56,491 bases of DNA, from assembly GCA_038062615.1 (NCBI GenBank), contig JBBTWV010000002.1:1-56491 (forward strand), in the 5' to 3' direction. This document shows positions 22,732-56,491 of the stretch, in pieces. Within the stretch, counting starts at the first letter, position 1. Each line of letters opens with the position of its first letter. A program made the position numbers and the translations under genes. The DNA comes from Patescibacteria group bacterium. GTDB lineage: Bacteria > Patescibacteriota > Gracilibacteria > UBA1369 > UM-FILTER-53-11. A model generated the notes under the pieces. The model was given only the letters and a program-made list of their open reading frames with translations, did not search any database and had not been told where the DNA came from.

Positions 22732-22781
22732 TGGCTCAAGCTTGTCTGGGATTTGGGGGTTTCACCAGATGGCTTGTCCAT

Positions 22782-22935
22782 AAGGTGCATATTAAACACT
22801 AAATTAACAGATAAGTCAACAGGTTCGTAACCTGTTATGTCTGATGGTAGGTTTTAAAACTGGGTTGGCGACTCAGAATCAATTGATGTTCAAAATCGTA
22901 TGGAGTAACATAAGGGTGTAACAATCTTACTCCCT
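22782..22935. promoter_or_regulatory. Divergent promoter/operator region of cassette copy 2
   Basis: Conserved TTGACT (22819-22814), 17 nt, TTTAAT (22796-22791). Operator-like motifs at 22902-22909 and 22913-22922, and inverted at 22926-22935. Confidence 0.5.
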
Positions 22936-40352: not shown

Positions 40353-40356
40353 GGGT

Positions 40357-40851: not shown

Positions 40852-41489
40852 ACAGTGGGTTTTTTCATGGGTTTAAGTTGCCCAAGCGCAATCATCATAG
40901 CTTGTGCATTGGTAATTCGATTTCTGGCGCCGAACATTTTGCTGAGCATATTTTTAATTCCGGCTAGTTCTGCAATTTTACGAACGGCACCGCCGGCAAT
41001 AATTCCTGTACCAGGGCTGGCTGGCATCATAAAAATTTTAGCGCTCTTAAACTTTACCGTGACGTCATGCGGTATAGTGCCGTTTTTGAGCGGAACCACC
41101 ACCATGTCTTTTTTGGCCTGAGTGATAGCTTTTTGGATGGCACCGACGACTTCGTGGGATTTTCCAATACCAATGCCCACTTTACCCTTTCTGTTGCCAA
41201 CAACCACGGTGGCGCGGAAACGCAAACGGCGTCCTCCTTTTACTACGCGCGTTACACGATCAATTTGCAAAACTTCTTCTTCATATTCGGAAGGTTCTCT
41301 TCTGCCTCCACGTCCACCGTGGCCCCCGCCTGGACCTCCGCGTCCTCCTCCGGGTCCTCCGCGTCCATGCCCACCACCCGGACCACCACGCCCGCCGCCA
41401 CCTGGTCCTCCGCGCTTGCCTGCCGGTAGGCTAGTTCCGCGTTGGGGTGCTGCTCCTGCTGCCGGTACATTACTTTTCTGTTGTTCCAT
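40848..41489 (-). CDS. rpsE: 30S ribosomal protein S5 with Gly/Arg/Pro-repeat N-terminal extension
   Basis: Core IDRVTRVVKGGRRLRFRATVVVGNRKGKVGIGIGKSHEV. The N-terminus has GGPGGG(H/R)G repeats. Confidence 0.9.
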   Translation of the reverse strand: MEQQKSNVPAAGAAPQRGTSLPAGKRGGPGGGGRGGPGGGHGRGGPGGGRGGPGGGHGGRGGRREPSEYEEEVLQIDRVTRVVKGGRRLRFRATVVVGNRKGKVGIGIGKSHEVVGAIQKAITQAKKDMVVVPLKNGTIPHDVTVKFKSAKIFMMPASPGTGIIAGGAVRKIAELAGIKNMLSKMFGARNRITNAQAMMIALGQLKPMKKPTV

Positions 41490-41505
41490 AAGATTTTAGA
41501 ATTAC

Positions 41506-41535
41506 ATTCTTGATTCCTGACTCCTGATTCTTGAC
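41506..41535 (-). repeat. Family E purine-rich repeat copy 2, in the rplR-rpsE spacer
   Basis: The minus strand reads GTCAAGAATCAGGAGTCAGGAATCAAGAAT. It shares the exact 13-mer CAGGAATCAAGAA with 3367-3379. Confidence 0.5.
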
Positions 41536-41883
41536 TCAGAACACAAGGCCGCCTTCACGTGCGCCATCGGCGAGTGCTTTTACGCGACCATGATATTTAT
41601 AGCCGTTTCGATCAAATACACAAGTTTTTACGCCTTTTTCGAGAGCCTTTTTAGCCAGTTCCATACCGACTTTTTTAGCACGCTCGGTCTTGGTGCCTTG
41701 CTTAATGAAAGCACTATCGCTCGCAGCAGCAACCACAAGCCCTTTGGCATCGTTCACTAATTGAGCGTAATTTTTCTTAAGACTTCGGAAAACCACGAGC
41801 CGCGGACGAGTTTCTGAGCCTTCTATGCGGGCACGGATTCGGATGTGTCTTCTTTCGCGTTTGAGGAACTTCTTATTGTTCAT
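41536..41883 (-). CDS. rplR: 50S ribosomal protein L18
   Basis: MNNKKFLKRERRHIRIRARIEGSETRPRLVVFRS... The tracked start at 41961 reads through repeat C1. Confidence 0.9.
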   Translation of the reverse strand: MNNKKFLKRERRHIRIRARIEGSETRPRLVVFRSLKKNYAQLVNDAKGLVVAAASDSAFIKQGTKTERAKKVGMELAKKALEKGVKTCVFDRNGYKYHGRVKALADGAREGGLVF

Positions 41884-41961
41884 AATGTTTACGCTCGTCT
41901 GCGCTCGAACCGGCAAAGCCGGATTCTCGCTTGCCTCGCGGCGCCGCTGTGCGGCGCTCAT
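41884..41961 (-). repeat. Family C structured repeat (C1), abutting the rplR start codon
   Basis: AATGTTTACGCTCG...CCGGCAAAGCCGG...GCGCCGCTGTGCGGCGCTCAT aligns with 55789-55868. Confidence 0.7.
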
Positions 41962-41996
41962 AAGGCGCTAGACTGTTAATAAATAGTTAACTTCTT

Positions 41997-42563
41997 CTAC
42001 GCACCGCCTTTAGCGGCGGCTGTAGCGGCTTTTCCGGCCTTGCGGCGGATTTGCTCGCCAAGATAACGAATACCTTTTCCTTTATAAGGTTCTGGTGGAC
42101 GGAGTCCTCGAAGCTCGGAAGCCACTTGGCCCACCAAACTTTTATCAATGCCGGAAACCGTGATGATGTTCTTCTTTTCTTTATCAATTTCAAACAGAAT
42201 GCCTTCCTTAGCGGTGTATTCAATAGGATGAGAGAATCCAAGCGCCAGTTTGAGCTTTTTGCCTGCAATTACTTCAGCGCGGTAACCTACACCTTGAATC
42301 TCAAGTTTTTTGAAGAATCCCTTTGTGACGCCCTCAACCATGTTTGCCACCAGCGTTCGAGTAAGACCGTGGAGGCTTCGATCAAGAATTTCTTCGCTCT
42401 TGCGCTCTACGATGATTTTTCCGTCCTCAATTTTAATAACGACGCGAGCGTGAGGAGCAAAAACAAGCGTGCCCTTTGTCCCTTTTACGTTGAGCTTGCC
42501 CTCTTTAAAGGTAACTTCAACGCCGGAGGGAATGGTAACTGGTTGTTTGCCGATTCGAGACAT
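41997..42563 (-). CDS. rplF: 50S ribosomal protein L6
   Basis: MSRIGKQPVTIPSGVEVTFKEGKLNVKGTKG. The ATG at 42563 avoids overlap with rpsH. Confidence 0.9.
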   Translation of the reverse strand: MSRIGKQPVTIPSGVEVTFKEGKLNVKGTKGTLVFAPHARVVIKIEDGKIIVERKSEEILDRSLHGLTRTLVANMVEGVTKGFFKKLEIQGVGYRAEVIAGKKLKLALGFSHPIEYTAKEGILFEIDKEKKNIITVSGIDKSLVGQVASELRGLRPPEPYKGKGIRYLGEQIRRKAGKAATAAAKGGA

Positions 42564-42574
42564 AAAAAATTTTC

Positions 42575-42958
42575 TTAATATACTTCGCAAAGGAATTCAC
42601 CGCCAACTTTTTGCTTACGGGCTTCTTCGCCAGGCAAGATACCGCGGGAAGTAGAAATAATAGCAATGCCTTGGCCGTTTTTAACGCGCTTGATTTTATC
42701 CCAACCCACATAAATGCGTTGGCCAGGTTTGCTGACGCGCTTGAGCTGAAGAGGTTCACCCTCCGCACGAAGCACAATGTGCAGCTCCTTGGTTTTTTCT
42801 ATGGCGACTTCCTCAACTTTTTCTAAGAAATGCTTATCCATAAGCACCTGTGCAATCGCCTTGATCATGCGAGATGATCGCACCGTAAGCTCGTGCCGTC
42901 TGGCAGAGCTGGCATTACGAATGCGTGTGAGAAAGTCTGAAATAGGATCGGTAAGCAT
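42575..42958 (-). CDS. rpsH: 30S ribosomal protein S8
   Basis: MLTDPISDFLTRIRNASSARRHELTV... Confidence 0.9.
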   Translation of the reverse strand: MLTDPISDFLTRIRNASSARRHELTVRSSRMIKAIAQVLMDKHFLEKVEEVAIEKTKELHIVLRAEGEPLQLKRVSKPGQRIYVGWDKIKRVKNGQGIAIISTSRGILPGEEARKQKVGGEFLCEVY

Positions 42959-42972
42959 ATGGTGAAATAAAA

Positions 42973-43197
42973 TTACCAGGAAGATTTTTTAACGCCTGCA
43001 ATGAGTCCGCGCAGCGCCAGTTCGCGGAAGCAAATTCTGCAGAGATCAAAGTAGCGCATGTAACCACCGATACGTCCGCAAAGCCGGCAGCGATTATATA
43101 CCTTTGTTGGATGATGAGGCTTTTTACCGGCTGCAAGGGAACGGAGGAATTCATCCTTGAGTCGGCGGTGTTTCACTTTTAAGGCTTTTCGAGCCAT
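42973..43197 (-). CDS. rpsN: 30S ribosomal protein S14, zinc-binding (type Z-like)
   Basis: CRLCGRIGGYMRYFDLCRICFRELALRGLIAGVKKSSW, with a CxxC...CxxC pattern. Confidence 0.9.
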   Translation of the reverse strand: MARKALKVKHRRLKDEFLRSLAAGKKPHHPTKVYNRCRLCGRIGGYMRYFDLCRICFRELALRGLIAGVKKSSW

Positions 43198-43211
43198 AAA
43201 TTAAGGAGAGA

Positions 43212-43754
43212 TTAATGTTTAAAGGGGAATCCAAATGCTTTTAAAAGTTCGAGTCCTTGTTTGTCATTTTCTGCCGTGGTCTGAATGGTTATCTGAACGC
43301 CGTGAGTCTTATTAACATCATCGGCCTGAATTTCTGGGAAGACGATGTGCTCAGTAATTCCCACGGAATAATTTCCTTTTCCATCGAATGACTTTTTAGA
43401 GATGCCGCGGAAGTCACGAATACGGGGGAAAACTACATGAACCAGTTTTGTAAGAAAATCATACATGCGTTTTCCGCGGAGCGTAACAATAACGCCTGAG
43501 ACCATATTGATTTTGAGCTTAAAGTTAGAAATGGCCTTTTTGGATTTCACTATCATAGGTTTTTGGCCAGCAATCATCGTAATATTTTTGACGATTTCTT
43601 CGGGATCCTTCCCCTGTGCCACGTGACTTCCAACGCCGACGTTAATTTTGATAGCCTTAATTTTTGGCACAGCATTCCGGTTTTTGAGTCCGAGTACTTT
43701 ACTGAGCTCGGGAACCATTTCGTCGCGATAGAGTTGTTGGAGAGTTTTCTTCAT
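43212..43754 (-). CDS. rplE: 50S ribosomal protein L5
   Basis: NRNAVPKIKAIKINVGVG...RGKRMYDFLTKLV...FDGKGNYSVGI. Confidence 0.9.
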   Translation of the reverse strand: MKKTLQQLYRDEMVPELSKVLGLKNRNAVPKIKAIKINVGVGSHVAQGKDPEEIVKNITMIAGQKPMIVKSKKAISNFKLKINMVSGVIVTLRGKRMYDFLTKLVHVVFPRIRDFRGISKKSFDGKGNYSVGITEHIVFPEIQADDVNKTHGVQITIQTTAENDKQGLELLKAFGFPFKH

Positions 43755-43767
43755 AAGGGATTTAAAT

Positions 43768-43825
43768 GGTCGCGCCCTTCGGGCGCATTACTTGCTTAGC
43801 CTCGCCTCGACGGCTCGGCCTGTTA
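43768..43825 (-). repeat. Family B repeat (B3) filling the rplX-rplE spacer
   Basis: TGGTCGCGCCCTTCGGGCGCATTACTTGCTTAGCCTCGCCTCGACGGCTCGGCCTGTTA. The terminal TTA is the complement of the rplX stop codon. Confidence 0.7.
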
Positions 43826-44164
43826 AACTTTCTTCGTGTGTTTTTTCTCAACGGCTTTATCGAGGCTTTGAGAACATTTTTTGCAGACGCGCTGCTTCTT
43901 TCCTGTCTTAAGAACAATGTGGCCCACGCGCGTTGCTTTAGAACAGTGTGGACAAATCACCATGACGTTAGAGATATCAAACGGAGCTTCAAAAGTGATT
44001 TTCTGGCCAGCTTGATCGGCTTTACGCTTAATATGTTTGACGCGCATGTTGATCTTCTCAACGACGGCTTTACGATGTTTTTCGCTGACACGCATGACCT
44101 TTCCGGATTTTCCGCGATACTTTCCGGCAATTACCAACACATTGTCGCCCGTATGAACTTTCAT
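43823..44164 (-). CDS. rplX: 50S ribosomal protein L24 (with CxxC...CxxC pattern in the C-terminal part)
   Basis: [29 protein letters not shown] motif, and [11 protein letters not shown]...VCKKCSQ. Confidence 0.9.
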
Positions 44165-44529
44165 AAAACTTCAGGAGCTAAAGAAACAATTTTTTGAAAA
44201 CCTTTTTCACGGAGTTCGCGAGCCACTGGGCCAAAGACGCGAGTTCCTTTTGGTTCACCTTCCTTAGTGACAATCACGCAGGCATTGTCGTCAAAGCGAA
44301 TGTAAGATCCGTCCTTGCGTCGGATTTCTTTGTGCGTGCGGACAATAACGGCGCGTTCAATCGCCTTTTTCTTCACTTGGGCGTGTGGTGTAGCTACTTT
44401 TACAGAGACCACAATGGTGTCGCCTACCGAGGCATAACGGCGCTTGGAACCACCGAGCACCTTGATGCACTTCACGAGCTTAGCGCCGGAGTTATCGGCC
44501 ACAACGAGTCTGGTAACTTGCTGAATCAT
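44161..44529 (-). CDS. rplN: 50S ribosomal protein L14
   Basis: [37 protein letters not shown]. Confidence 0.9.
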
Positions 44530-44537
44530 GAGTAAAG

Positions 44538-44774
44538 TTAGGCTTTAGGAAGGGGAGGAACCACCGTCCAACGCTTGAGTTTGGAGAGTGGGCGCGTCTC
44601 ATAAATGGTTACTTTATCGCCGACTTGATACTTGTTCTCTGGATCGTGCGCATAGAACTTTTTAGATGAACTTACGAGTTTTTTATACTTTGGATGAGCT
44701 CTTTTGGAAGTAACTTTAACCACAAGGGTCTTTTCCATTTTGTTGCTCATGACAGTTCCAACTTTAGTTCTCAT
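44538..44774 (-). CDS. rpsQ: 30S ribosomal protein S17
   Basis: [16 protein letters not shown]...HPKYKKLV...[26 protein letters not shown]. Confidence 0.9.
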
Positions 44775-44792
44775 AAGAATTGAGGATAATTA

Positions 44793-45023
44793 CTATTTCG
44801 TTACGGCACTTTTAGCATTCTCTTTGACTTGTTCCATAGAGAGCCAGCGCTTCATGGTTTTAATACGAGCAATGTATTTGCGCAAGCTTTTTAACTTCGA
44901 CGTCTCTTTGCTCTGGCGTCCTGCAACCGAGAGTCGCAGCTTGAGCAAGTTGATCCGGCCTTTGCGGATTTCTTCAACCAGTTCTTTCTCTGTCATCTTT
45001 TTGAGTTCGTCGGGGGTAAGCAT
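44793..45023 (-). CDS. rpmC: 50S ribosomal protein L29
   Basis: LKKMTEKELVEEIRKGRINLLKLRL, in the position between rplP and rpsQ. Confidence 0.85.
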   Translation of the reverse strand: MLTPDELKKMTEKELVEEIRKGRINLLKLRLSVAGRQSKETSKLKSLRKYIARIKTMKRWLSMEQVKENAKSAVTK

Positions 45024-45027
45024 GGGG

Positions 45028-45088
45028 ATTGTTGCGCCCTGCGGGCGCGTTATTGGCTTAGCCGTCGCCTCGACGGCTAAGCCTGTTA
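45028..45088 (-). repeat. Family B repeat (B4) filling the rplP-rpmC spacer
   Basis: ATTGTTGCGCCCTGCGGGCGCGTTATTGGCTTAGCCGTCGCCTCGACGGCTAAGCCTGTTA, with a perfect 10-bp stem TTAGCCGTCG/CGACGGCTAA. The terminal TTA is the complement of the rplP stop. Confidence 0.7.
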
Positions 45089-45499
45089 GTGTGAGATAAC
45101 GAAGCGAGTTCTTACGGGGAGTTTGCTTGCAGCCAGGTACATGGCTCTCTTGGCGAGATCTTGGGTTACGCCATCCATTTCCATAATAATGTGGCCTTTT
45201 CGTACCTGTGAGACATAGAATTCGACGGTTCCCTTACCGGCACCCATGGGTACTTCAGCCGCTTTGCGAGTGATGGGCTGGTGAGGAAAAATTCGAATCC
45301 AGATTTTTCCTCCGCGTTTGAGGCAGTGCGCAACAGCTTTACGTGCGGCTTCCAGCTGACGAGAATTGATCTCGCCGCCACTTTGAGCTTTGAGTCCAAA
45401 AGATCCAAAGCTGAGTTGATGGCCGGAAGTTGCGACACCATACTGGCTGTTTCGCATCCGATGCCACTTCCTATATTTCGTTCGAGCAGGCTGTAACAT
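45086..45499 (-). CDS. rplP: 50S ribosomal protein L16
   Basis: MLQPARTKYRKWHRMR...GGKIWIRIFPHQPITRKAAEVPMGAGKG. Confidence 0.9.
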   Translation of the reverse strand: MLQPARTKYRKWHRMRNSQYGVATSGHQLSFGSFGLKAQSGGEINSRQLEAARKAVAHCLKRGGKIWIRIFPHQPITRKAAEVPMGAGKGTVEFYVSQVRKGHIIMEMDGVTQDLAKRAMYLAASKLPVRTRFVISH

Positions 45500-45507
45500 A
45501 GAAAATC

Positions 45508-46137
45508 TTAATGAAACACTTCACCGCGATAAACCCACACCTTTACTCCGATGGTTCCATAGGTGGTTATGGCCCGGTAGTAACCGTAATCAATATCAGC
45601 ACGGAAAGTTTGAAGTGGAATTTTTCCGGCAGCAAAGAACTCACTGCGAGCAATTTCAACACCATTGAGACGCCCAGCGCAGTTGATCTTTACGCCTTTG
45701 GCGCCCGATTCCATAGAACGTTCAATAGAAATCTTGCAGGCGCGTCGGTAAGGGATGCGCTTTTCGATCTGCTTGCCCACCAGCTCTGCCAAAATGTAGG
45801 CATCTTGGTACGGCTTCTTAATCTCTTTAATGTTGATGATGAATTTGTCATGGAACTTGGCTTCAAGATCCTTGCGAAGATTATCAATGGCGGCTCCTTG
45901 GCTGCCAATGGCAAGACCTGGCCTTGAACTCATAATATTCACCGTAACTTGATTGGCATTGCGGAGAATCTCAATATGAGAGACGCCAGCTTCGGAAAGT
46001 TTTTTCTCAACGAACTTTCGAAGTTGAATATCCTGATGCAGCGTCTTTGCAAAGTTATGCTTGTTGGCATACCACTTTGAGTCCCAGGTGCGGTTGATAC
46101 CGAGACGGAGTCCAATTGGATGTACTTTTTGACCCAT
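45508..46137 (-). CDS. rpsC: 30S ribosomal protein S3
   Basis: MGQKVHPIGLRLGINRTWDSKWYA, plus a KH domain. Confidence 0.9.
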   Translation of the reverse strand: MGQKVHPIGLRLGINRTWDSKWYANKHNFAKTLHQDIQLRKFVEKKLSEAGVSHIEILRNANQVTVNIMSSRPGLAIGSQGAAIDNLRKDLEAKFHDKFIINIKEIKKPYQDAYILAELVGKQIEKRIPYRRACKISIERSMESGAKGVKINCAGRLNGVEIARSEFFAAGKIPLQTFRADIDYGYYRAITTYGTIGVKVWVYRGEVFH

Positions 46138-46151
46138 GGGGAGAGAAATAA

Positions 46152-46553
46152 TTAAGCTTGAATTTTCTGAGTAACTTTTACAGGCTTTTCTTTAATAACT
46201 TTTTTCACTTTTGCATCAGGAGCGGCTGTACGCACGGCCACTTCTACCGTAATGTGGCTTGTTCTTTTGAGGATAGGATGAGCACGTCCTTTTGATACGG
46301 GACGATGCCGTTTAAGAGTGGATCCTTCATTCACAATGATCTTGCTGATGTAGAGATCTTTGCGCTGCTGTTTGAAGTTTTGCTCGGCGTTGGCAACGGC
46401 AGAGCGAATCGTCTCCATAAGAGGCTTGGCACTTTTCTTGGGAGTAAAGCGCAGAAAGTTAATGGCTGTTTCTGCGGATTTGCCGCGAACAAGATCAGCG
46501 ACGAGGTTCACTTTTTTTGGAGAGATGCGGAGATATCTTCGGATAGCTTTCAT
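46152..46553 (-). CDS. rplV: 50S ribosomal protein L22
   Basis: MKAIRRYLRISPKKVNLVADLVRGKSAETAINFLRFTPKK. The tracked TTG start at 46589 reads through a repeat-like GC-rich stretch. Confidence 0.85.
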   Translation of the reverse strand: MKAIRRYLRISPKKVNLVADLVRGKSAETAINFLRFTPKKSAKPLMETIRSAVANAEQNFKQQRKDLYISKIIVNEGSTLKRHRPVSKGRAHPILKRTSHITVEVAVRTAAPDAKVKKVIKEKPVKVTQKIQA

Positions 46554-46652
46554 GAGGCGAGGGAGCGAAGCGACCGAGCCTTTTACCAATTGAGGGTTGT
46601 CGCCGTTAGCTTAGTGAGTGATATAAACTTAGGAGCACAGATTAAAGATTTT

Positions 46653-47030
46653 CTATTTCGCTGGTGCTTTAGTAGGGGCAGCGGCACCGGCAGCAGGTGC
46701 ACCGGTTGCTCCAGGAGCAGGAGCGGCGCCGCCTTCAGCGGCAGAACCAGTACCAACTTCGCGAGCCAAACGGCCACCGTGAGCTCTAAATTTACGAGTA
46801 GGGGAGAATTCACCAAGACGATGTCCCACCATGTTTTCACTTACGAACACCGGGATGTGCTGCTTGCCATTGTGGACTCCAAAGGTGTGGCCCACAAATT
46901 CTGGAGGAATCTGGCAAGAACGTGCCCAAGTCTTGATAATCTTTTTTTGTCCGATGGCATTGAGTGCCGCAACTTTCTTCACAAGTTTGGCATCTACGTA
47001 AGGACCTTTTTTTGAACTGCGATGTGACAT
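46653..47030 (-). CDS. rpsS: 30S ribosomal protein S19 with ~35-aa Gly/Ala/Pro-rich C-terminal extension
   Basis: [14 protein letters not shown]...[34 protein letters not shown], then [33 protein letters not shown]. Confidence 0.9.
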
Positions 47031-47031
47031 A

Positions 47032-47886
47032 TCACTCAGTTTTAATTAATTGCTTGCCCTTGCGGGTGCGGATGATAAAGCGGTTTGTCCATTTTTTGCG
47101 CGTGCGAGTTTTGTGACCCAACGCCGGGGCACCCCATGGAGTTTTAGGATGAATGAGACCGATCGTAGTACTTCCTTCACCACCACCGTGTGGATGATCA
47201 ATCGGGTTCATGGCTTTACCTTGTACTTCCGGACGCAGACCTTTCCAGCGTGCTCGGCCGGCTTTTCCAAGCGAGACCAAGTTGTGGTCAGGATTACTGA
47301 CGCGACCAATGGAAGCGTAGCAGGTTTTATGCACAAATCGAAGTTCCTTAGAAGGCATTTCGACCTGGGCATAACGACCTTCGAGCGAGATAAGCCGTGC
47401 TGCTGAACCAGCAGATCGGATAACTTGCCCGCCCTTACCGGAGGTCATTTCCAGATTATGAATCTCAAAACCAACAGGAATATTTTTAAGTTGAATGCGA
47501 TTGCCAACCTTTATTTTGGCCTTCGCCTTGGTCATAATGGTACCGCCGACCGTAATGCCGTGTGGCGCTAAGTGATAACGTTTTTCACCATCGGCGTAGT
47601 GCACCAACATAATGAAGCAAGTGCGGAAAGGATCATATTCAATGGCGGCAACTTTGCCTGGCACATCCAATTTTTCCGTCTGTTTAAAATCAATCAAGCG
47701 ATACAAAACCTTGTTTCCTCCGCCGCGATGGCGCACCGTGAGGCGACCCTGATTATTACGACCAGCGTGTTTTTGAATGCGTACGCGCAGACGTTTCTCA
47801 GGACGATGTTTCGTGAGTTCTTCGTACGTAAGGCTAACGCGGAAGCGTTGGCCGGGAGTCGTTGGTTTAAATGATTTGACTGGCAT
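47032..47886 (-). CDS. rplB: 50S ribosomal protein L2
   Basis: [17 protein letters not shown]...[16 protein letters not shown]. Confidence 0.9.
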
Positions 47887-47894
47887 AGAGATGG

Positions 47895-47967
47895 GTGTCC
47901 TTGCGAGCGTTAGCGAAGCAATCTAGTGTAGGTTGCTTCGTCCCATGGATGGGACTCGCAATGACAG
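47895..47967 (-). repeat. Family A nested-hairpin repeat (A2) filling the rplW-rplB spacer
   Basis: GTGTCCTTGCGAGCGTTAGCGAAGCAATCTAG...TTGCTTCGTC...CTCGCAATGACAG. The outer arms GTCCTTGCGAG/CTCGCAATGAC and inner arms GCGAAGCAA/TTGCTTCG are complementary. Confidence 0.7.
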
Positions 47968-48267
47968 TTATGACTTAACTTTAGGCTTCATGGCATCAAT
48001 TACCTTGAGACCTTTGGTGGTAATAATAACTTTTTTTAAAGCTGGTCTCTTTGTTACTGGCGTCCGAGCCTTTCCAATCTTAGTCTTTTTAGGCGTTTTG
48101 ATGACGTTCACTTTTGCCGCATCAACTCCGTAAATTTCTTTGAAAGCGGCGCGAATATCAACTTTGGTGGCATAAGGCCGAACAAAGAACTGAAACTTTC
48201 CCTTCTTCTCTGCGGAAGTTGCTTTTTCGGTAATGACTGGACGTAAAAAGAAATCGAAGGTTTTCAT
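47968..48267 (-). CDS. rplW: 50S ribosomal protein L23
   Basis: LRPVITEKATSAEKKGKFQFFVRPYATKVDIRAAFKEIYGV. Confidence 0.9.
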   Translation of the reverse strand: MKTFDFFLRPVITEKATSAEKKGKFQFFVRPYATKVDIRAAFKEIYGVDAAKVNVIKTPKKTKIGKARTPVTKRPALKKVIITTKGLKVIDAMKPKVKS

Positions 48268-48275
48268 GTGAGAAA

Positions 48276-48905
48276 TTATGAGCTAAGGAAGACTTCTTCT
48301 AATTTAGCGATTGAGGCTTTTAAAAAGACAATATCTCTATACTTCAGCAGGTCCACAACATTGAGGTAATTTACCAGGATAGATTTAACTGAAGGAATGT
48401 TGCGGCTGGAACGGTAGAGAGTTTCATCTTTACCTGGGAGTACAAAGAGAACCGTCTTTTTAAATGGAAGTTTTTTGAGCATCTCATTGAACTTCTTGGT
48501 CTTGGGAGTTTCTGAATCGAATGCTTCTAATGCGGAAACGTTGCCGTCTTTGAGCTTTGAAGCGAGGGCAGAGAACAAAGCACCACGGCGTTCTTTTTTA
48601 GAAGCGAAGAGCTCAAAATTTCTGGCGTTACGAGGACCAAAAGCCACACCACCTCCACGGAAGTGCGGGTTGGTAATGGAACCCTGGCGGGCATTACCAG
48701 TGTGCTTTTGTTTGTAAGGTTTTTTACCACCACCACGCACCTCACCTTTGGTCATGGTGTGAGCAATAGGGTGGCGCTTGTTGGATTGCTGCAACACGAG
48801 CATGCGATGCATGAGAGGCTTATTGATAGCGTGCCCAAAAATTTTTTCTGGAACCATTACTTCGCCTTTAGGGCTGCCGTCTTGTGAGTACAGGGGGATT
48901 TTCAT
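48276..48905 (-). CDS. rplD: 50S ribosomal protein L4
   Basis: TKGEVRGGGKKPYKQKHTGNARQGSITNPHFRGGGVAFGP. Confidence 0.9.
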   Translation of the reverse strand: MKIPLYSQDGSPKGEVMVPEKIFGHAINKPLMHRMLVLQQSNKRHPIAHTMTKGEVRGGGKKPYKQKHTGNARQGSITNPHFRGGGVAFGPRNARNFELFASKKERRGALFSALASKLKDGNVSALEAFDSETPKTKKFNEMLKKLPFKKTVLFVLPGKDETLYRSSRNIPSVKSILVNYLNVVDLLKYRDIVFLKASIAKLEEVFLSS

Positions 48906-48907
48906 AA

Positions 48908-49486
48908 TTAACTGTTAACCATTACGAGTCCTCCGCGCGGCCCGGGAACCGGACCCTTGATGAGGAGAATATTTCTTTCAGGGAGAACTTGGATGAGTGG
49001 AATATTTCGAGTGGTGAGACTCTCAAAGCCCATATGGCCGGCCATCTTTTTACCTTTGTGGATGCGGCCTGGGTTTGAACGGGCACCGATGGAGCCTGGT
49101 TCGCGGTTGAAGTGGCTTCCGTGGCTGCCTGGCCCAGAATGGAAGTGGTGGCGCTTCATGAAGCCAGCAAATCCTTTTCCTTTGGAAACGGCTTTTACCG
49201 TTACCAACTTAATTTCTTTGAAGGCCTCCACCGTAACTTGGTCACCGACTTTGTAATCCTCCGGCTTTTCAACATGGAACTCGCGCAGGAACCGGTATTT
49301 TCTGGTTTTGCGCGGTTTTTTCAATGCGTTAAACCCGAGGACTATCGCCGGATATCCATCTTTGTCTACCGTTTTGATCTGAGTAATGACCGAAGGAGAA
49401 CAACTCAGAACGGTGACAGGGATCACACGACCATCGTCTTGGAATATGCGAGTCATGCCCATTTTTGTGCCCAGAATACCTGGCAT
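48908..49486 (-). CDS. rplC: 50S ribosomal protein L3
   Basis: MPGILGTKMGMTRIFQDDGRVIPVTV matches the canonical L3 N-terminus. The tracked ORF extends to 49552 with 22 non-conserved residues. Confidence 0.85.
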   Translation of the reverse strand: MPGILGTKMGMTRIFQDDGRVIPVTVLSCSPSVITQIKTVDKDGYPAIVLGFNALKKPRKTRKYRFLREFHVEKPEDYKVGDQVTVEAFKEIKLVTVKAVSKGKGFAGFMKRHHFHSGPGSHGSHFNREPGSIGARSNPGRIHKGKKMAGHMGFESLTTRNIPLIQVLPERNILLIKGPVPGPRGGLVMVNS

Positions 49487-49610
49487 ACAGGAGAGGTTAG
49501 GAACTACTTTGCGAAACTTTTGGACTTGCTGGGAGTTATCCCGTCTCGACATACGTCGGGACGCCTAGGTTTCAAGCTAACGTGCTGATTTTCTTATTAG
49601 GTGCTTGTAC

Positions 49611-49639
49611 AAGTTACAGATAACCAATTTCGATGTCAA
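49611..49639 (-). promoter_or_regulatory. Putative promoter for rplC and downstream genes: TTGACA (49639-49634), 17 nt, TAACTT (49616-49611)
   Basis: Read on the minus strand within the 49487-49697 spacer created by the opposite-strand gene. Confidence 0.4.
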
Positions 49640-49658
49640 TTTCAGGTTACAGAAGCAC

Positions 49659-49687
49659 TTGACATTATTACTTTAATATAATACAAT
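49659..49687 (+). promoter_or_regulatory. Promoter TTGACA (49659-49664), 17 nt, TACAAT (49682-49687), 10 nt before the ATG at 49698
   Basis: Near-consensus hexamers at ideal spacing directly upstream of the orphan ORF. Confidence 0.5.
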
Positions 49688-49697
49688 CTTCATCCTT

Positions 49698-50687
49698 ATG
49701 AATACTACACCCTCATCGGATAGAAGAAACATAGATCAACTTGTGACGGATTTAAGGAGAGAACCCCTTCAGCTTCCTCCTGCCAATGCCACAGATGTGC
49801 AAGAGCGCCGTTTGGCCATTCGTAACCTTATTTTGGAGGCAACTCGCAATACCCTTTTTCAATTGTGTGATAACCAAGGCAACGGGCTTGTATACGATAA
49901 CGCTTGGCCACCACTTGATGGTGTTTCAACGATAGTTGATGGCCATGACGTACACGATTTTATGGAAGCCTTTCGTCATCATCTTGACCCGCAAAGTCCG
50001 CATTTTGATAATCTTCTTGCCGACCCTGACGTTGGAATTACTCGCCTTATTTCAATTTTTACCAAAATGGCCGTGGAGGTGGCCAGCCGAGGAGGAAGTC
50101 CATCCGCAATCTTTAAATATTTTAGAAGATTAACTGAAGAAGATTTACCAGTTGATGTACTAAGTGTGGGAAGAGTTCCGGAAACAAAATATTATGGTCT
50201 CGAAGAATTGCCCTGGGATAAACCAGAAAGCAGATCTAAGCCATTTACTGCCAAAGGATTATTGCAAGAGAAGCTCGGTGGAGCTTTGGTGCGTTATTGG
50301 TCATTTATGAATGACTATTTCTTAGCGCAAACATTACAAGAACCGAGATTTGCAGAACAAGCTGAATATATAAATACATTTAAAAAAGCTTTTGGAGATT
50401 TGCTCAGTAAAGCTGGTATTACGTCTGACTGGATTATGTGTTGGTTCTTTACTATATCTCATGCACTGGAAACCCAGGTGACTTCTGCAATGACCACGGA
50501 GATGAGCTTGGCCCTTATGCAACTCGGACAGGAAACAGTGGCCATTCTGGGGGGAGGTGACCAAAATAAGCATGCACTCATTGGACAGGCAGTTCAAAAA
50601 TTTGCACAACAAACATTGCCGGCTTTAGTAAACCAAGCGCCGCAAGCAGGACCAGCTTTGCTTCCCATTCGACAAGCTGAGGAGTGA
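49698..50687 (+). CDS. Orphan 329-aa helical protein inserted on the opposite strand between rpsJ and rplC
   Basis: Long ORF with its own promoter. No recognisable domain, signal peptide or TM segment. Confidence 0.65.
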   Translation: MNTTPSSDRRNIDQLVTDLRREPLQLPPANATDVQERRLAIRNLILEATRNTLFQLCDNQGNGLVYDNAWPPLDGVSTIVDGHDVHDFMEAFRHHLDPQSPHFDNLLADPDVGITRLISIFTKMAVEVASRGGSPSAIFKYFRRLTEEDLPVDVLSVGRVPETKYYGLEELPWDKPESRSKPFTAKGLLQEKLGGALVRYWSFMNDYFLAQTLQEPRFAEQAEYINTFKKAFGDLLSKAGITSDWIMCWFFTISHALETQVTSAMTTEMSLALMQLGQETVAILGGGDQNKHALIGQAVQKFAQQTLPALVNQAPQAGPALLPIRQAEE

Positions 50688-50694
50688 CATTCCG

Positions 50695-50706
50695 CTCGCA
50701 ATGACA
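50695..50706 (-). repeat. Family A right-arm fragment (A4)
   Basis: CTCGCAATGACA is identical to the right arm of A2 and A3. It lies in the 22-nt gap between the orphan ORF stop and the rpsJ stop. Confidence 0.45.
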
Positions 50707-50709
50707 TCG

Positions 50710-51051
50710 CTATTTCTTCGTGGGTAACTCGCTGGAGATCATCTTAATTTCGACATCCACACCGGCTGGTAAACTCAGGTTGCTCAGAGATTCAATGGTC
50801 TTTGGCGTTGATTCCGTAATATCAATAAGGCGCTTGTGCTCACGCATCTCAAACTGCTCGCGGCTGTTTTTGTGAACAAACGTAGAGCGGTTTACCGTGA
50901 ATTTTTTGATGCGTGTTGGCAGGGGAATAGGACCGGCAATAATGGCTCCGCTTTTTTCTGCCGTATCAATGATGAGTTTTGTGGACTCATCAGCAACCTT
51001 ATGATCAAAAGCCTTGATCTTAATTCTGATTTTCTGTTGAGCTGTGGCCAT
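50710..51051 (-). CDS. rpsJ: 30S ribosomal protein S10
   Basis: [50 protein letters not shown]. Confidence 0.9.
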
Positions 51052-51060
51052 AGAAAGGAT

Positions 51061-51132
51061 TGTCCTTGCGAGCGTAGCGAAGCAATCTAGACTAGTTTGC
51101 TTCGTCGGCCTTTGGGCCTTCTCGCAATGACA
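51061..51132 (-). repeat. Family A nested-hairpin repeat (A3) filling the tuf-rpsJ spacer
   Basis: TGTCCTTGCGAGCGTAGCGAAGCAATCTAGACTAGTTTGCTTCGTCGGCCTTTGGGCCTTCTCGCAATGACA. It directly abuts the tuf stop codon (51133-51135). Confidence 0.7.
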
Positions 51133-52332
51133 TTACTCGATGATCTTTGTTACAACTCCGGCACCAACCGTCTTACCACCTTCACGAATAGCAAAGCGAA
51201 GACCGGCGTCCATAGCAATAGGTACTCCAAGAACTACCACGAGTTTGACGTTATCACCTGGCATAACCATTTCTGCGCCGGCTGGAAGTTCAATATTTCC
51301 CGTCACATCCGTGGTGCGCATATAGAACTGAGGCTTGTATCCTTTGAAGAATGGAGTATGACGACCACCTTCTTCTTTGGTGAGTACATAAATTTCGCAC
51401 TCAAACTTGGTGTGAGGCTTGATAGTTCCTGGTTTAGCAAGAACCTGTCCGCGTTGGATTTCTTCTTTTTCAATACCGCGGAGGAGGAGACCTACGTTGT
51501 CTCCAGCCTGACCTTGGTCCAAAAGTTTCTTGAACATTTCAACACCAGTAACTACCGTCTTGCGAACGGGAGTAATACCAATGAGCTCAACTTCTTCGTT
51601 AATCTTCACAACGCCTTGTTCGATTCTTCCTGTAGCCACCGTACCGCGTCCTTTAATAGAGAAGACATCTTCTACAGGCATGATGAATGGCTTATCCAAA
51701 GGACGATCAGGCATTGGGATGTAGGTATCGAGCTGTTCGAGGAGGTCAAGAATTGGTTTTGCAGCGGCCTCGTCATTTGGATTTTCCATAGCCTTGAGAG
51801 CGGAGCCTTTAATAATTGGAGTTTTATCGCCTGGGAAGCCGTACTTGGTAAGAAGTTCGCGGATTTCCATTTCCGTAAGCTGGGCAATTTCCGGGTCAGC
51901 CATATCCATCTTGTTCATGAAAACGACGATGTATGGAACGTTTACCTGCTTGGCAAGAAGAATGTGTTCACGAGTTTGCGGCATGGGTCCATCGGCGGCA
52001 GATACCACAAGAATAGCGCCATCCATTTGGGCAGCACCGGTAATCATATTCTTAATATAGTCAGCATGACCAGGACAGTCCACGTGAGCATAGTGGCGGT
52101 TTGGAGTCTCATACTCCTGATGGGAAGTGGCAATGGTAATACCACGAGCCTTTTCTTCTGGAGCGTTATCAATCTGGTCATAGCGCACCGCCTTGTTGGA
52201 AGCGCTTGGCCACCTAGCGGAACACACCATGGTTATGGCGGCCGTTAAAGTTGTCTTTCCATGGTCAACGTGACCGATGGTACCGACGTTGAGATGAGGT
52301 TTCTTACGATCGAACTTAACTTGATCCGCCAT
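51133..52332 (-). CDS. tuf: Elongation factor Tu
   Basis: [26 protein letters not shown] and NKMD motifs. Confidence 0.95.
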
Positions 52333-52376
52333 AGTATTAAAAGTTAGAAGTTAATAAAGCTTAAATAGCGAAGATG

Positions 52377-52405
52377 ATTCTAGAGGAAGAAAAAGGGCTT
52401 TGCAA
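52377..52405 (-). promoter_or_regulatory. Putative tuf promoter: TTGCAA (52405-52400), 17 nt, TAGAAT (52382-52377)
   Basis: Read on the minus strand. The -10 ends 44 nt upstream of the tuf ATG. Confidence 0.45.
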
Positions 52406-52463
52406 GAGAAAAAATGAGGAAATATGGCATTAATATATGGAATGTTCTTGGGCTCCGCCTCTG

Positions 52464-53183
52464 CTATTCCTGTCCCATTTGAGCTAGATCGCCAAAATAT
52501 ATGGAATATTCTTTGGCTCCACGGCTACTCGTTTCGTTATTCCCATCTTTGTTTATGATCTCAAAATGTTCTGCTCCAACAATATTGGAACCTCTCCAGT
52601 GAAGGGTGAACTCGCTCCCTAATCCGCCACCAGATCCTCCATTAAATGATTCATTCTCTGGAAGGGTGACGAGCAATTTACAGGAATCCTTAAGGAGATC
52701 GCAGATATAAAGTGTTCTTTGATCCATTAAGTCGGGAACATAGGCCAATCTTGTGCTATCGGGCGAAGCAGTGAAGTTCATCCATCCGCCAGCCCATATA
52801 GAATTTATTGCCATTTTTTTAAATTTTTTCGTCTGGGTGTTGAATTTATAAAGAGGACCATATCCGGCATCAGTTTCGGGCATCGTAACTGAGAAAAAAA
52901 CTGCGTTGGAGTTATAAGGTTGAGCGATGAGAGTCAAAGATTCAGTCACTTTTAAATCAGGAAGCTGGTCGCGCACATTTTGTAGCACGATGCTTTTCTT
53001 TCCTGTTTTGCGACTGATTTTATAGAGCTTTGAGGTAAATCCATATTCCTCTCGTTCAGACCATTTTATCTCAATACCATAATCAAATAGCTTGGTACTT
53101 TGGGCACTTGCTGGAACAGCAAAAAGTAAAAAAGCCGCGCTGCAAATGGAGACAGAAAAAATGATTTTAATAAATTTTTGCAT
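52464..53183 (-). CDS. Hypothetical secreted protein inserted between fusA and tuf
   Basis: Signal peptide MQKFIKIIFSVSICSAAFLLFAVPASA|QS. Beta-rich sequence with no recognisable domain. Confidence 0.65.
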   Translation of the reverse strand: MQKFIKIIFSVSICSAAFLLFAVPASAQSTKLFDYGIEIKWSEREEYGFTSKLYKISRKTGKKSIVLQNVRDQLPDLKVTESLTLIAQPYNSNAVFFSVTMPETDAGYGPLYKFNTQTKKFKKMAINSIWAGGWMNFTASPDSTRLAYVPDLMDQRTLYICDLLKDSCKLLVTLPENESFNGGSGGGLGSEFTLHWRGSNIVGAEHFEIINKDGNNETSSRGAKEYSIYFGDLAQMGQE

Positions 53184-53223
53184 AGCAAAAAATAAAGCTT
53201 ATATTAAGCCGAGTATATCACAT

Positions 53224-55329
53224 TTATCTGGCTCTCGCCGTACCCGTTCCGCGGGATTCTTTGATCTTTTCGGAAACGTTGGCGGGAACTTTTTGGTAGT
53301 GCCCAAACTCCATGCTGTAGCTGGCTCGGCCTTGGGTCATGGAACGTAAATCGGTGGCGTAGCCAAACATTTCGGAGAGGGGAACGTGAGCCTTAATAAA
53401 CTTGGCCATGCCGCGATCTCCGGTTTCAAAAATTTGTCCGCGGCGAGAACTCAAGTTACCCATAACATCTCCAAAGAAATTTTCAGGAGAAACCACTTCC
53501 ACATTCATGATTGGTTCAAGGAGATGCGGATCGGCTTTGCGAGCCGCGCCTTGGAAGGCGAGTGAACCGGCAATTTTGAAAGCCAATTCAGAAGAGTCAA
53601 CGTCGTGGTAACTTCCATCAAAGAGTTCAACTTGAATATCCACAAGCGGATAACCGGCCACGACTCCACGAGTAAGGGCTTCTCGAATACCTTTATCAAC
53701 GGCTGGGATAAATTCACGCGGAATGCGTCCACCGACGATTTTGTCCAAAAATTCGTAACCTTTTCCTTTTTCTAAAGGACGAACGAGAAGTTTTACGTGG
53801 CCGTACTGACCGTGACCACCTGTTTGCTTCACATATTTTTCCTCACCTTCAGCCTCTTTGCTAATAGTTTCTTTGTAAGCTACTTGCGGTGTACCAACGT
53901 TGGCTTCCACTTTAAATTCGCGGCGCATACGATCCACGATGATATCCAAATGGAGTTCACCCATACCAGAAATAATCGTCTGGCCAGTTTCTTCATTCGA
54001 TTTTACTTGGAAGGTAGGATCTTCTTCAGCCAATTTTTGAAGGGCGATACCCATTTTCTCTTGATCGGCCTTGGTTTTTGGTTCAATGGCAATGGAGATA
54101 ACCGGATCAGGAAACTCAATCGCCTCCAAAATGATGGGATGATCCACGTCGCAAAGCGTATCACCCGTAAATGTCTGTTTAGGGCCAATGAGTGCGGCAA
54201 TTTCTCCGGCGTGAACTTCTTTAATCTCTTCACGCGAGTTGGCATGGAGCCGAACCATACGGCCAACGCGCTCTTTTTGTTCACTCGTGGCATTATAAAC
54301 ATACGAGCCGGTTTCTAATTTTCCGGAATAGACCCTAAAGAAAGCGAGTTTACCAACAAAAGGGTCAGTAGCAATTTTGAAAGCAAGCGCCGTGAAAGGT
54401 TCGCTTGCGTCGGGCTTACGTTCTTCTTGCAGCCCGGTGCGTGGGTTAATACCTTTAATAGGAGGAAGATCAAAAGGAGCGGGGAGGAAGAAACAGACGC
54501 CGTCGAGCACAAACTGAACACCCATGTTTTTGAGTGAGCTTCCGCAAAAAACCGGATACAACTGGCCTTTAATGACACCGCTTCGAAGTCCGCGGCGGAT
54601 TTCGTCTATCGTTAATTCTTTGCCTTCGATGTACTTGGCCATGAGGTCATCGTCAAACTCGGAAGCTTTTTCTAAAACTTTGTGGCGATATTCCGTCACT
54701 TGGTCCTTCATATCTTCTGGAATAGGAATTTCTGTAATTTTTTCGCCGTTTTCACCTTCAAATTTGTAGGCTTTTTGCGTGATCAAATCCACAATGCCGC
54801 TAAAGCTGCTTTCGTAGCCGATGGGAAGCTGCACCGCTACGCCGCTCTTGGAAAGGCGTTCGTGAATAGATGCCAGCGTCATGAAAAAATCCGCGCCGGT
54901 CTTGTCCATTTTATTTACAAAAGCGATACGAGGAACTTCATACTTATCGGCTTGGCGCCAGACGGTTTCGGATTGCGGTTCGACGCCTTGGGATCCATCA
55001 AACACGACAACGCCGCCATCCAGTACGCGCAAACTACGCTCAACTTCCACCGTAAAATCTACGTGGCCGGGAGTATCAATAATGTTGAAGCGATATTTTT
55101 CTCCGCCAATGGTGGGAGTCCAAAAACACGTGGTGGCCGCAGCGGTAATCGTAATGCCGCGTTCTTTTTCCTGTTCCATCCAGTCCATTTCGGCGGCACC
55201 TTCATGCACCTCGCCGATTTTGTGTTTCTTTCCGGTATAAAAAAGAACACGTTCAGTGGTGGTGGTTTTCCCGGCATCAATATGAGCAATAATGCCGATA
55301 TTACGCGTCAGTCGGAGATCTTCAGCCAT
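53224..55329 (-). CDS. fusA: Elongation factor G
   Basis: [28 protein letters not shown] and NKMD. 701 aa. Confidence 0.95.
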
Positions 55330-55335
55330 AAAATT

Positions 55336-55788
55336 TTAATATTTAGCAAAGTGAGCGAACGCCTTGTTGGCCTGAGCCATGCGGTGCGAATCGTCCTTCT
55401 TTTTGACAGCGGGACCTGTGCCTGCAGCGGCTTCAATAAGTACGCCGGCAAGTTTTTTACCCATAGGACGTCCTTTTATGCCACGTGCCGCGGCTATAAT
55501 CCAGCGGAATGCGAGGGAGAGTTGGCGGTTGGATTTTACCTCAACAGGAATTTGATACACCGCGCCGCCGATACGTTTGGGACGGACTTCCATGGTGGGT
55601 TTTACATTATCTACGGCTTTTTCAAACACACGTTCTGGATTTTGTCCGGCCGCCTGTTTGCTGATTTCAAGAAAACTGTCACGCAAAATTCTGCGGGAGG
55701 TAGATTTTTTGCCGCACGACATCATCGTGTTGATGAAGCGTTCTTGGAGCGGATTGGAACCTTCGGGAATGTAGATTGCTTTTTTCAT
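55336..55788 (-). CDS. rpsG: 30S ribosomal protein S7
   Basis: MSCGKKSTSRRILRDSF...MEVRPKRIGGAVYQIPVEV...HRMAQANKAFAHF. Confidence 0.9.
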   Translation of the reverse strand: MKKAIYIPEGSNPLQERFINTMMSCGKKSTSRRILRDSFLEISKQAAGQNPERVFEKAVDNVKPTMEVRPKRIGGAVYQIPVEVKSNRQLSLAFRWIIAAARGIKGRPMGKKLAGVLIEAAAGTGPAVKKKDDSHRMAQANKAFAHFAKY

Positions 55789-55868
55789 AATGTTTACGCT
55801 CGGCCTTGCTCAGACTGGCAGAGCCAGATCTTCGCTGCGGCCTCGCAGCCCCGCTGTGCGGCGCTCAT
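55789..55868 (-). repeat. Family C structured repeat (C2), abutting the rpsG start codon
   Basis: AATGTTTACGCTCGG...CTGGCAGAGCCAG...CCGCTGTGCGGCGCTCAT. It is collinear with C1 and has a compensatory change in the central hairpin. Confidence 0.7.
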
Positions 55869-55894
55869 TAATTAAATAAGATATTTGAAATTCG

Positions 55895-56305
55895 TTACTT
55901 AGGTCTCTTAGCACCATACTGACTACGTCCACGGCGACGAGCCGTAACACCTTGGGTATCAAGAAGTCCGCGGACAATGTGATAGCGCACGCCGGGAAGA
56001 TCCTTCACGCGTCCTCCGCGAATCATGACCACGGAGTGTTCTTGGAGGTTGTGGCCTTCACCCGGAATATAAGCGATAACTTCCATCCCGTTGGTAAGGC
56101 GAACCTTGGCGATTTTACGCAAAGCCGAGTTGGGCTTTTTAGGTGTCATGGTGGTTACCTTAATACAGACACCGCGTTTGAGCGGAGCAGAAAGCGGGAT
56201 CAGTTTGCTCTTGAGGGAGTTCCATCCAAATTGCAACACCGGAGATTTCGACTTCTTAGACGGGGGGTGGCGTTTGTGGCGGACGAGTTGGTTAATGGTT
56301 GGCAT
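55895..56305 (-). CDS. rpsL: 30S ribosomal protein S12
   Basis: [12 protein letters not shown]...[18 protein letters not shown]...[25 protein letters not shown]. Confidence 0.95.
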
Positions 56306-56315
56306 AGTGAGTCAC

Positions 56316-56343
56316 AGTCTAGCGGATAAAGTTATCGAGTCAA
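56316..56343 (-). promoter_or_regulatory. Putative str-operon promoter: TTGACT (56343-56338), 16 nt, TAGACT (56321-56316), 10 nt before the rpsL ATG
   Basis: Read on the minus strand. Confidence 0.45.
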
Positions 56344-56383
56344 GCTATAGGGCCTGTTCGCATATAATTCTTGCGATGGTTGG

Positions 56384-56474
56384 ACAGGAATATGGTTGGA
56401 TTTAAGGCGCGAGGAGCACAGTGTAGCATAGCTACACAAGCGACGAGCAACACGGAAGACAGCCATATTCCTGT
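56384..56474. repeat. ~90-bp imperfect palindrome upstream of the rpsL promoter
   Basis: Outer arms ACAGGAATATGG (56384-56395) and CCATATTCCTGT (56463-56474). Inner hairpin GTGTAGC-ATA-GCTACAC (56421-56437). Confidence 0.55.
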
Positions 56475-56491
56475 GCAACCCGTAGGGAAGG

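Follow-up and report, generated by a model that had tools for sequence, protein, structure and literature searches.

The stretch of DNA analyzed here (the window; 56,491 nt) is contig JBBTWV010000002.1 of assembly GCA_038062615.1, from a Patescibacteria group bacterium, and its ribosomal protein cluster is interrupted between rpsJ and rplC. On the minus strand the genes follow in the order rpoC, rpsL, rpsG, fusA, a 239-aa gene, tuf, rpsJ, the gap, rplC, rplD, rplW, rplB and onward to secY. The gap comprises 1,223 nt (positions 49487–50709) and contains a 329-aa open reading frame (ORF) on the opposite strand; a first-pass annotation had described this ORF and a separation of about 1.2 kb, and its coordinates were confirmed. 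It had also called the ORF an orphan, seen a hint of repeat-associated insertion and taken rplC to have apparently acquired a promoter of its own. Our analysis points to a different reading, which we consider probable: the cluster would form two transcription units, the second would be served by its own promoter and a structured leader in front of rplC, and the divergent gene would be a long-standing resident of the gap in this clade.

The region was compared with independent assemblies. Contig CAYIMD010000001.1 (GCA_964364405.1) differed from the window by 5 single-nucleotide polymorphisms across 16.8 kb, none of them inside the ORF or the gap. Logan contigs of two independent runs spanned rplC, the ORF, rpsJ and tuf with zero mismatches, and identical fragments of the region were present in runs from other studies. 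A chimeric or artefactual join, a possibility raised by the first-pass annotation, is ruled out by these independent assemblies. At position 49073, within rplC, the window and the NCBI record differ by a G/T polymorphism that contigs from three runs of different studies also show; it alters one residue of L3 (P0002 versus P0003, 99% identical).

Few gene orders in bacteria are as well conserved as that of str-S10-spc, which serves as an anchor for phylogeny and binning. In 75 control loci of unrelated bacteria, S10 and L3 matches lay 6–278 nt apart, with a single exception of 699 nt; in the Peregrinibacteria clade the separation was 1,196–2,821 nt. The closest named L3 proteins are those of Candidatus Peregrinibacteria. 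With its gap of 1,223 nt the window does not show the single-unit S10 operon of the Escherichia coli type, in which rpsJ is followed by rplC after a short spacer on the same strand, and an Rfam scan of positions 46500–54000 (E ≤ 1) returned no match of any kind, an L4-responsive leader upstream of rpsJ included. The rplC start was set at the ATG at 49486, from which the sequence MPGILG is kept in all relatives; the start of a longer ORF, which extends to 49552, is not the one in use.

Loci of relatives (L numbers) were chosen by L3 proteins 59–78% identical to that of the window. A metagenome scan contributed only L094–L096, and a scan of GTDB representatives with the window L3 returned only distant phyla (≤48% identity), which served as controls. 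A comparison of synteny, as suggested in the first-pass annotation, revealed a gene of the same protein family in the same slot across relatives. A member was found in L085/L086 (opposite strand), L087 (convergent with rpsJ), L088/L089 and L090. In L092 the member adjoining rplC is accompanied by an ORF6N gene and a 169-aa gene, and in L093, where L3 is just 60% identical to that of the window, by a 144-aa gene. L083 holds a 321-aa gene and a weak family member, and L175 a 303-aa protein on the opposite strand with borderline similarity to the family. L084 has a YkuD gene in place of the family gene, L174 a Fic gene on the same strand and no family gene, and L176 no insert at all, rpsJ and rplC being 153 nt apart. 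Among more distant loci, rpsJ and rplC are adjacent in L095, while in L096 two same-strand genes, for an SMR transporter and a lipoprotein, lie between them. The 6 kb upstream of rplC in the Peribacteria locus L020 contain no rpsJ; the nearest upstream gene (5228–5836, minus strand) we take, from reading its translation by eye, to resemble a REP-associated (repetitive extragenic palindromic) or IS200-type Y1 transposase, and a DsbA-like protein and lysyl-tRNA synthetase are encoded further upstream.

Wherever the family gene is present it adjoins rplC and is divergent from it. From these loci the split between rpsJ and rplC is read here as old and clade-wide, with the family gene as its usual resident; the more distant loci give no uniform picture.

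The first-pass annotation had found no recognisable domain in the 329-aa protein, and searches of Pfam, NCBIfam, PHROGs and PADLOC and a profile search of PDB sequences were likewise empty. The ORF is, however, no orphan. A k-mer (word-indexed) search found the ORF alone and was misleading, as an exhaustive phmmer search of 1.84 billion representatives recovered three full-length relatives (P0123, P0124 and P0125, 24–29% identity) and a profile search four further ones (P0126–P0129). When every ORF of the related loci was searched with a hidden Markov model of the family, each locus yielded exactly one match, located in the rpsJ–rplC gap. In profile comparison the 303-aa protein of L175 was borderline (E 9e-4, probability 23%) and the 321-aa protein of L083 weak (E 0.05). 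Ten sequences share the collinear motifs D..F..A..D..VG...LL, LPW, R..L and QW; none of the invariant positions looks catalytic, all being occupied by hydrophobic or structural residues (F, G, L, P, W). The phmmer search also matched P0122, a repeat protein, to the C-terminal 45 residues of the 329-aa protein only. P0122 (590 aa) consists of eight tandem repeats of about 64 aa that align with residues 278–324 at about 30–35% identity per repeat (E 1.3e-9 overall), and the similarity could reflect a shared short module or a compositional match.

Selection was estimated between L085 and L088, the only pair close enough (dS, synonymous divergence, 0.96). The ratio of nonsynonymous to synonymous divergence (dN/dS) was 0.113 for the family gene; among its neighbors it was 0.068 for L3, 0.083 for L4 and 0.029 for S10. 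With homologues and a dN/dS of this size, the ORF is a genuine protein-coding gene under purifying selection; a lack of homologues and of such selection had been named in the first-pass annotation as a possible refutation. The family evolves much faster than its neighbor genes, members being 28% identical where L3 retains 78%. The members found so far come only from Peregrinibacteria, and the family appears to be undescribed.

AlphaFold2 run on the single sequence was uninformative, with a predicted local distance difference test score (pLDDT) of 43. With an alignment of eight sequences the model was all-helical apart from one small beta-hairpin (pLDDT 69, predicted template modelling score 0.56), and Foldseek matched this model to nothing in PDB or BFVD, the best hits being designed helical repeat proteins at E 0.19. 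The structure prediction proposed earlier thus produced a model but no matching fold. The family members are acidic (isoelectric point, pI, 5.0–5.8), and because they are also predicted to be all-helical and lack conserved residues of a catalytic type, the sequences and the model suggest a role in binding or as a scaffold more than an enzymatic one.

Two predicted promoters lie back-to-back between the divergent gene and rplC, each with −35 and −10 hexamers at the 16–18 nt spacing typical of sigma-70. The consensus promoter that the first-pass annotation had placed before the ORF was confirmed; with 11 of 12 matches it is the best-scoring site in the region. TTGACA-16/17-TAyAAT also precedes the divergent gene in L085, L088, L087, L083, L092 and L175, making seven loci with the window. 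In the window and L087 the −10 box ends 8–10 nt before the ATG (10 nt in the window), and because this distance is so short the mRNA of the divergent gene is probably leaderless or nearly so. On the other strand, TTGAC-N17-TA(A/G)nTT, with a conserved CTG in front, occurs before rplC in all 13 clade loci. The rplC promoter named in the first-pass annotation is present and conserved, but its acquisition through an insertion is not supported, as L176 carries it with nothing inserted.

The sequence between the two −35 boxes is variable, while its length is conserved: nine of the 12 loci have 19 nt between the boxes and the three exceptions have 29, 30 and 40 nt, increments that correspond to steps of about one helical turn. 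An invariant GTCAA block upstream of rplC is the −35 box of the divergent gene in reverse orientation. In L174 (about 3820–3860) the TTGTCAAG box, i.e., the divergent −35 box, and the 19-nt spacing are kept in a gap that has no divergent gene; the box may be a relic or may serve a promoter for an antisense or unannotated transcript.

The regions upstream of rplC were aligned from eight loci, between which synonymous sites are saturated. Downstream of the promoter they share a leader of about 100–170 nt with the invariant blocks GCAyGUUAG, GGCGCC, UUUAAGUCC and CUAACC, ending in uAUGCCAGG at the rplC start. Promoter and leader elements were also present in L087, L094, L174, L175 and L176, giving 13 loci in all. 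Unconstrained minimum-free-energy folds of single sequences agreed on one architecture in L083, L084, L085, L088, L090 and L174. It consists of an outer helix P0 (GUUAG/CUAAC), a long covarying P1, an inner GGC/G(U)CC pairing that contains a bulged base, an asymmetric UUUAA loop of 5 nt, the P2 hairpin (GCC...GGC) and, usually, a P3 just before CUAAC. The CUAAC strand of P0 lies 10–14 nt ahead of the rplC AUG, and no terminator-like U-tract follows the hairpins.

MAFFT and RNAalifold predicted no structure from the raw leaders, as hairpins of variable length misalign. The paired segments were therefore registered by hand, with N for a gap or a masked variable loop. In this alignment of the 13 loci 89.6% of the cells were paired, and 13 of the 21 pairs showed changes on both sides (33 cells); none of 500 shuffles reached any of the five measures, and slid controls paired 21–44%. 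A covariance model, R1, was then built from six leaders that MAFFT aligned naturally, using P1 and the inner helix only, and searched against 1.0 Mb comprising the window, about 80 L3 loci of other phyla, distant relatives and the E. coli rrn operon. All 12 matches at E ≤ 10 were leaders directly upstream of rplC, among them six of the seven held-out clade loci and the window itself (49512–49585, minus strand; 25.6 bits, E 0.02), and there was no match outside the leaders at this threshold, the rrn operon included. The alignment made by the model had 84.8% of its cells paired and compensatory changes in eight of 12 pairs. A permissive regular-expression search for the leader core proved unspecific and was dropped, since it gave 68 control matches and missed the copy in the window.

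These alignments show that a conserved, covarying leader of predicted secondary structure precedes rplC. It lies in the 5′ untranslated region of a ribosomal protein (r-protein) operon and its conserved structure is accompanied by compensatory changes, as is the case for known r-protein leaders, and we regard it as a candidate new member of that class. [quoted passage not shown] (2013, PMC3616713).

Across 27 upstream regions of the cluster (39700–56491) no gene is preceded by a Shine-Dalgarno sequence, and the organism probably initiates translation without such pairing. The 20 nt before start codons are pyrimidine-rich, and YUAAY often stands 10–17 nt upstream, e.g., at rplC, rplN and tuf.

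Taken together, we favor the reading that the S10 cluster operates as two transcription units, one ending in fusA-tuf-rpsJ and the other running from rplC and rplD to secY. The transcriptional break would be independent of any insert, because L176 has the promoter and the leader and no inserted gene. The leader would act as an element of autogenous control: most likely it binds a protein encoded by the operon, with uL4 as the prior candidate by analogy, and binding would stabilize the P1/P2 loop and P0. Since the 3′ strand of P0 ends so close to the AUG and no Shine-Dalgarno sequence is used, stabilized P0 could occlude the rplC initiation region and block translation initiation. Such translational repression would be likelier than attenuation, given the absence of a U-tract after the hairpins. 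Upstream of the rplC promoter, the gap would be a tolerated space in which the family gene has become fixed and other genes come and go. Because the distance between the −35 boxes is fixed and helically phased, the arrangement suggests that the two promoters are coupled, e.g., by local supercoiling or polymerase contacts, and we infer that the family gene is co-expressed with the ribosomal protein operon through the shared promoter region.

Several observations weigh against this reading. Both promoters, the transcription start sites and the leader as an RNA were deduced only from sequence, and a search of RNA runs found none that contains the region. The −10 box of the rplC promoter (TAACTT) matches three of six positions, which is poor by E. 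coli rules, and the promoter scanner did not list this promoter; the box does retain the A at position 2 and the T at position 6. Hand registration underlies the first structural alignment, and the second was fitted to its own model. Mimicry of rRNA found no backing either: R1 did not match the E. coli rrn operon, and an 8-nt identity of UUAAGUCC to E. coli 16S rRNA near position ~1090 was set aside, about one such match being expected by chance. The structural model of the 329-aa protein is of medium confidence only. Finally, the slot of some relatives holds unrelated genes (YkuD, Fic, ORF6N, SMR transporter) and L084 and L174 lack the family gene, which weakens any obligatory link between the family and the ribosomal operon.

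The varied occupants of the slot also speak for another account, which we hold to be possible but doubtful: the gap may be a permissive, transcriptionally neutral integration slot and the family merely its commonest passenger, unconnected to ribosome synthesis, the promoter being conserved because the gene needs one. In addition to the varying content of the slot in L084, L174, L092, L093 and L096, further junctions of the cluster are broken: fusA and tuf are separated by the 239-aa ORF in the window, a second break in its ribosomal cluster, and by two genes in L093, and two genes split tuf from rpsJ in L176; L090 has no such interruption. Against a neutral slot, the family gene is always next to rplC and divergent when present; a spacing of 19 nt, or one longer by about 10 or 21 nt, persists across loci whose protein has fallen below 30% identity; and L174 retains the TTGTCAAG box despite having no divergent gene.

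Going beyond the two-unit reading, the family might be a lineage-specific partner of ribosome synthesis, e.g., a dedicated chaperone or assembly factor for the very basic uL3 and uL4 or a factor acting on the leader. Phase-locked back-to-back promoters would couple its expression to the rplC operon, and with the leader it would make up a CPR-specific module regulating r-protein synthesis; at present this seems rather unlikely. Lower still we rank a role of the protein as transcriptional regulator of both the rplC operon and its own gene. The divergent pair has been retained between deeply diverged loci together with the roughly 90 bp of promoter region that the two genes share, and conserved divergent pairs reportedly often consist of a regulator and its target (Korbel et al., 2004). 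On the other hand, no DNA-binding domain or fold was detected, the protein is acidic, the spacer between the promoters is unconserved with no operator visible, and L176, L084 and L174 retain the rplC promoter and leader without the family gene.

The repeat-associated insertion proposed in the first-pass annotation was prompted by a repeat arm at the 3′ end of the ORF. The arm is indeed there, an exact copy of CTCGCAATGACA located 8 nt past the stop codon, within the 22 nt that separate the two convergent stop codons. This 12-mer has four copies in the window, two of them within complete palindromic elements of about 72 nt with the form TGTCCTTGCGAG...GCGAAGCAATCT...GCTTC...CTCGCAATGACA. These elements sit within ribosomal protein transcription units, and L094 has a copy between rplC and rplD. 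In metagenome runs the contigs of the element reached a depth of 400–1400x versus about 7x for the flanks, i.e., 50–200 times more abundant, and because its depth is so far above that of the flanks the element is apparently shared by many genomes of the community. No arm was found at this position in any of the relatives examined, nor a second arm on the 5′ side of the ORF, and the arm is best read as a late addition specific to this genome.

That a recent, repeat-mediated insertion of an orphan forced rplC to gain a new promoter is therefore very improbable and is refuted by the synteny. Besides the arm, only the k-mer search, which returned the protein itself alone, would fit it; at least seven other lineages have homologues in this slot, including relatives with saturated synonymous sites and L3 identities of 60–78%, L176 has promoter and leader without any insertion, and the gene has a GC content of 0.437, near the 0.46 of the window. 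Weakest of all, and hardly credible, is the view of a spurious ORF or a mis-assembled region: the single-sequence AlphaFold2 model scored poorly, but the dN/dS, the motifs collinear over ten sequences, the rise in pLDDT once an alignment was supplied, and the exact agreement of contigs from several runs and studies refute it.

The convergent arrangement of the ORF and rpsJ had also raised the prospect of antisense regulation. In the window read-through into rpsJ is possible because the 22-nt spacer holds no terminator, and none was found in L085 and L090. Antisense overlap is not a conserved feature, however, because perfect bidirectional intrinsic terminators (A-tract, GC hairpin, T-tract) occupy this position in L088 (5919–5966), L092 (2208–2266) and L093 (3137–3256).

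Features of the rpsJ–rplC region and related elements in the window. Leader coordinates are given in the direction of the minus strand.
Feature	Position	Strand	Remarks
Palindromic element	about 15052–15100		further site
Complete palindromic element	47896–47966		second full copy
rplC (uL3)	48908–49486	−	TIGR03625, 5.9e-69; heads the downstream unit rplC-rplD-rplW-rplB-...-secY; gene calls of CAYIMD010000001.1 concur
rplC 5′ leader	49487–49604	−	candidate r-protein leader; 5′ end (~49604) placed from the −10 box
Leader P0	49581–49577 (5′ strand); 49500–49496 (3′ strand)	−	GUUAG; CUAAC
Leader P1	49573–49569 (5′ strand); 49517–49513 (3′ strand)	−	GAAAC; GUUUC
Leader inner GGC	49565–49563	−	
Leader P2 and second hairpin	49562–49528	−	
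Leader AAGUCC	49527–49522	−	
rplC promoter	49611–49639	−	TTGACA 49639–49634, 17 nt, TAACTT 49616–49611; read from sequence
Spacer between the two −35 boxes	49640–49658		19 nt; length conserved, sequence variable
Promoter of the 329-aa gene	49659–49687	+	TTGACA 49659–49664, 17 nt, TACAAT 49682–49687; 11/12 matches
329-aa family member	49698–50687	+	ORF call and homologues; predicted all-helical with one small beta-hairpin; pI 5.2
Solo repeat arm CTCGCAATGACA	50695–50706	+	in the 22-nt spacer between convergent stop codons
rpsJ (uS10)	50710–51051	−	NF001861, 3.6e-44, and gene calls; closes the upstream unit rpsL-rpsG-fusA-orf239-tuf-rpsJ
Complete palindromic element	51061–51132		fills the rpsJ–tuf spacer
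tuf	51133–52332	−	gene list of the cluster
239-aa ORF	52464–53183	−	between fusA and tuf; N-terminal signal-peptide-like segment; no Pfam match

Elsewhere in the window, direct-repeat families D1–D4, D9 and D11 recur in 16196–18680 and 21262–23695 with a spacing of about 5,015–5,066 nt and 71–89% identity, which points to a multi-kb segment that was duplicated in tandem and has since diverged. Short tandem coding repeats rich in proline and glycine were observed at 3931–4032 (51-nt unit) and 41323–41414.

The comparison reveals a whole CPR lineage whose str-S10-spc region is interrupted at one fixed place, and a predicted promoter pair and a new leader, both conserved, accompany this break. 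The leader is a candidate CPR r-protein leader with unusually clear covariation, and the family is one with a strong clue from genomic context in organisms whose genes are mostly unannotated. For annotation and scaffolding, an opposite-strand, non-ribosomal gene at this place is normal for the clade and no sign of mis-assembly. The clade may also offer a natural system for the evolution of operon splitting and of autogenous control without initiation directed by Shine-Dalgarno sequences.

Two of the known arrangements that resemble the locus in part were already touched upon, and both differ from it. An insertion by a repeat or miniature inverted-repeat transposable element does not fit the single arm at the 3′ side or the relatives that have the gene and no arm. 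A conserved divergent pair of regulator and target is matched by the conservation of the pair across distant genomes, but no DNA-binding domain was detected.

Cyanobacteria, plastids and archaea keep rpsJ together with tuf and have an L3 cluster that begins on its own; at the Oscillatoria locus L009 we found no S10 within 6 kb upstream of L3. The window shares with these groups a probable transcription-unit boundary between rpsJ and rplC. Unlike there, its two units are still neighbors, with a conserved divergent gene between them and an rplC promoter locked in its spacing to the promoter of that gene. Eukaryotes possess dedicated chaperones of r-proteins, such as Acl4 for uL4, which are acidic and all-helical and accompany very basic r-proteins. 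The family resembles them in being acidic, predicted to be helical and positionally tied to rplC-rplD; it has no similarity to them in sequence or fold, and the likeness offers a lead rather than a way to classify the family.

The S10 operon of E. coli begins with rpsJ, which is preceded by an L4-responsive leader (Fu et al., 2013, PMC3616713). The gene order from rplC onward is the same in the window, and in both cases a structured 5′ leader precedes a multi-gene operon encoding uL4. In contrast to E. coli, rpsJ here belongs to the upstream tuf unit, the leader stands before rplC and it has no similarity to Rfam entries; attenuation of the E. coli type is unlikely, given that no terminator-like U-tract follows the leader hairpins. 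A parallel in position is a candidate “L4” leader of Archaeoglobi, upstream of rplC-rplD-rplW-rplB and rated “?” by Eckert & Weinberg (2020, PMC7247131), whose survey lists a leader upstream of rplC for Archaeoglobi only, presumes L4 to be its ligand and has no entry for CPR bacteria. Like that motif, the leader described here is predicted to be structured and lies directly upstream of an rplC that heads its operon, and L4 may be presumed as its ligand by precedent. Unlike it, the leader belongs to another domain of life, matches nothing in Rfam and shows strong covariation.

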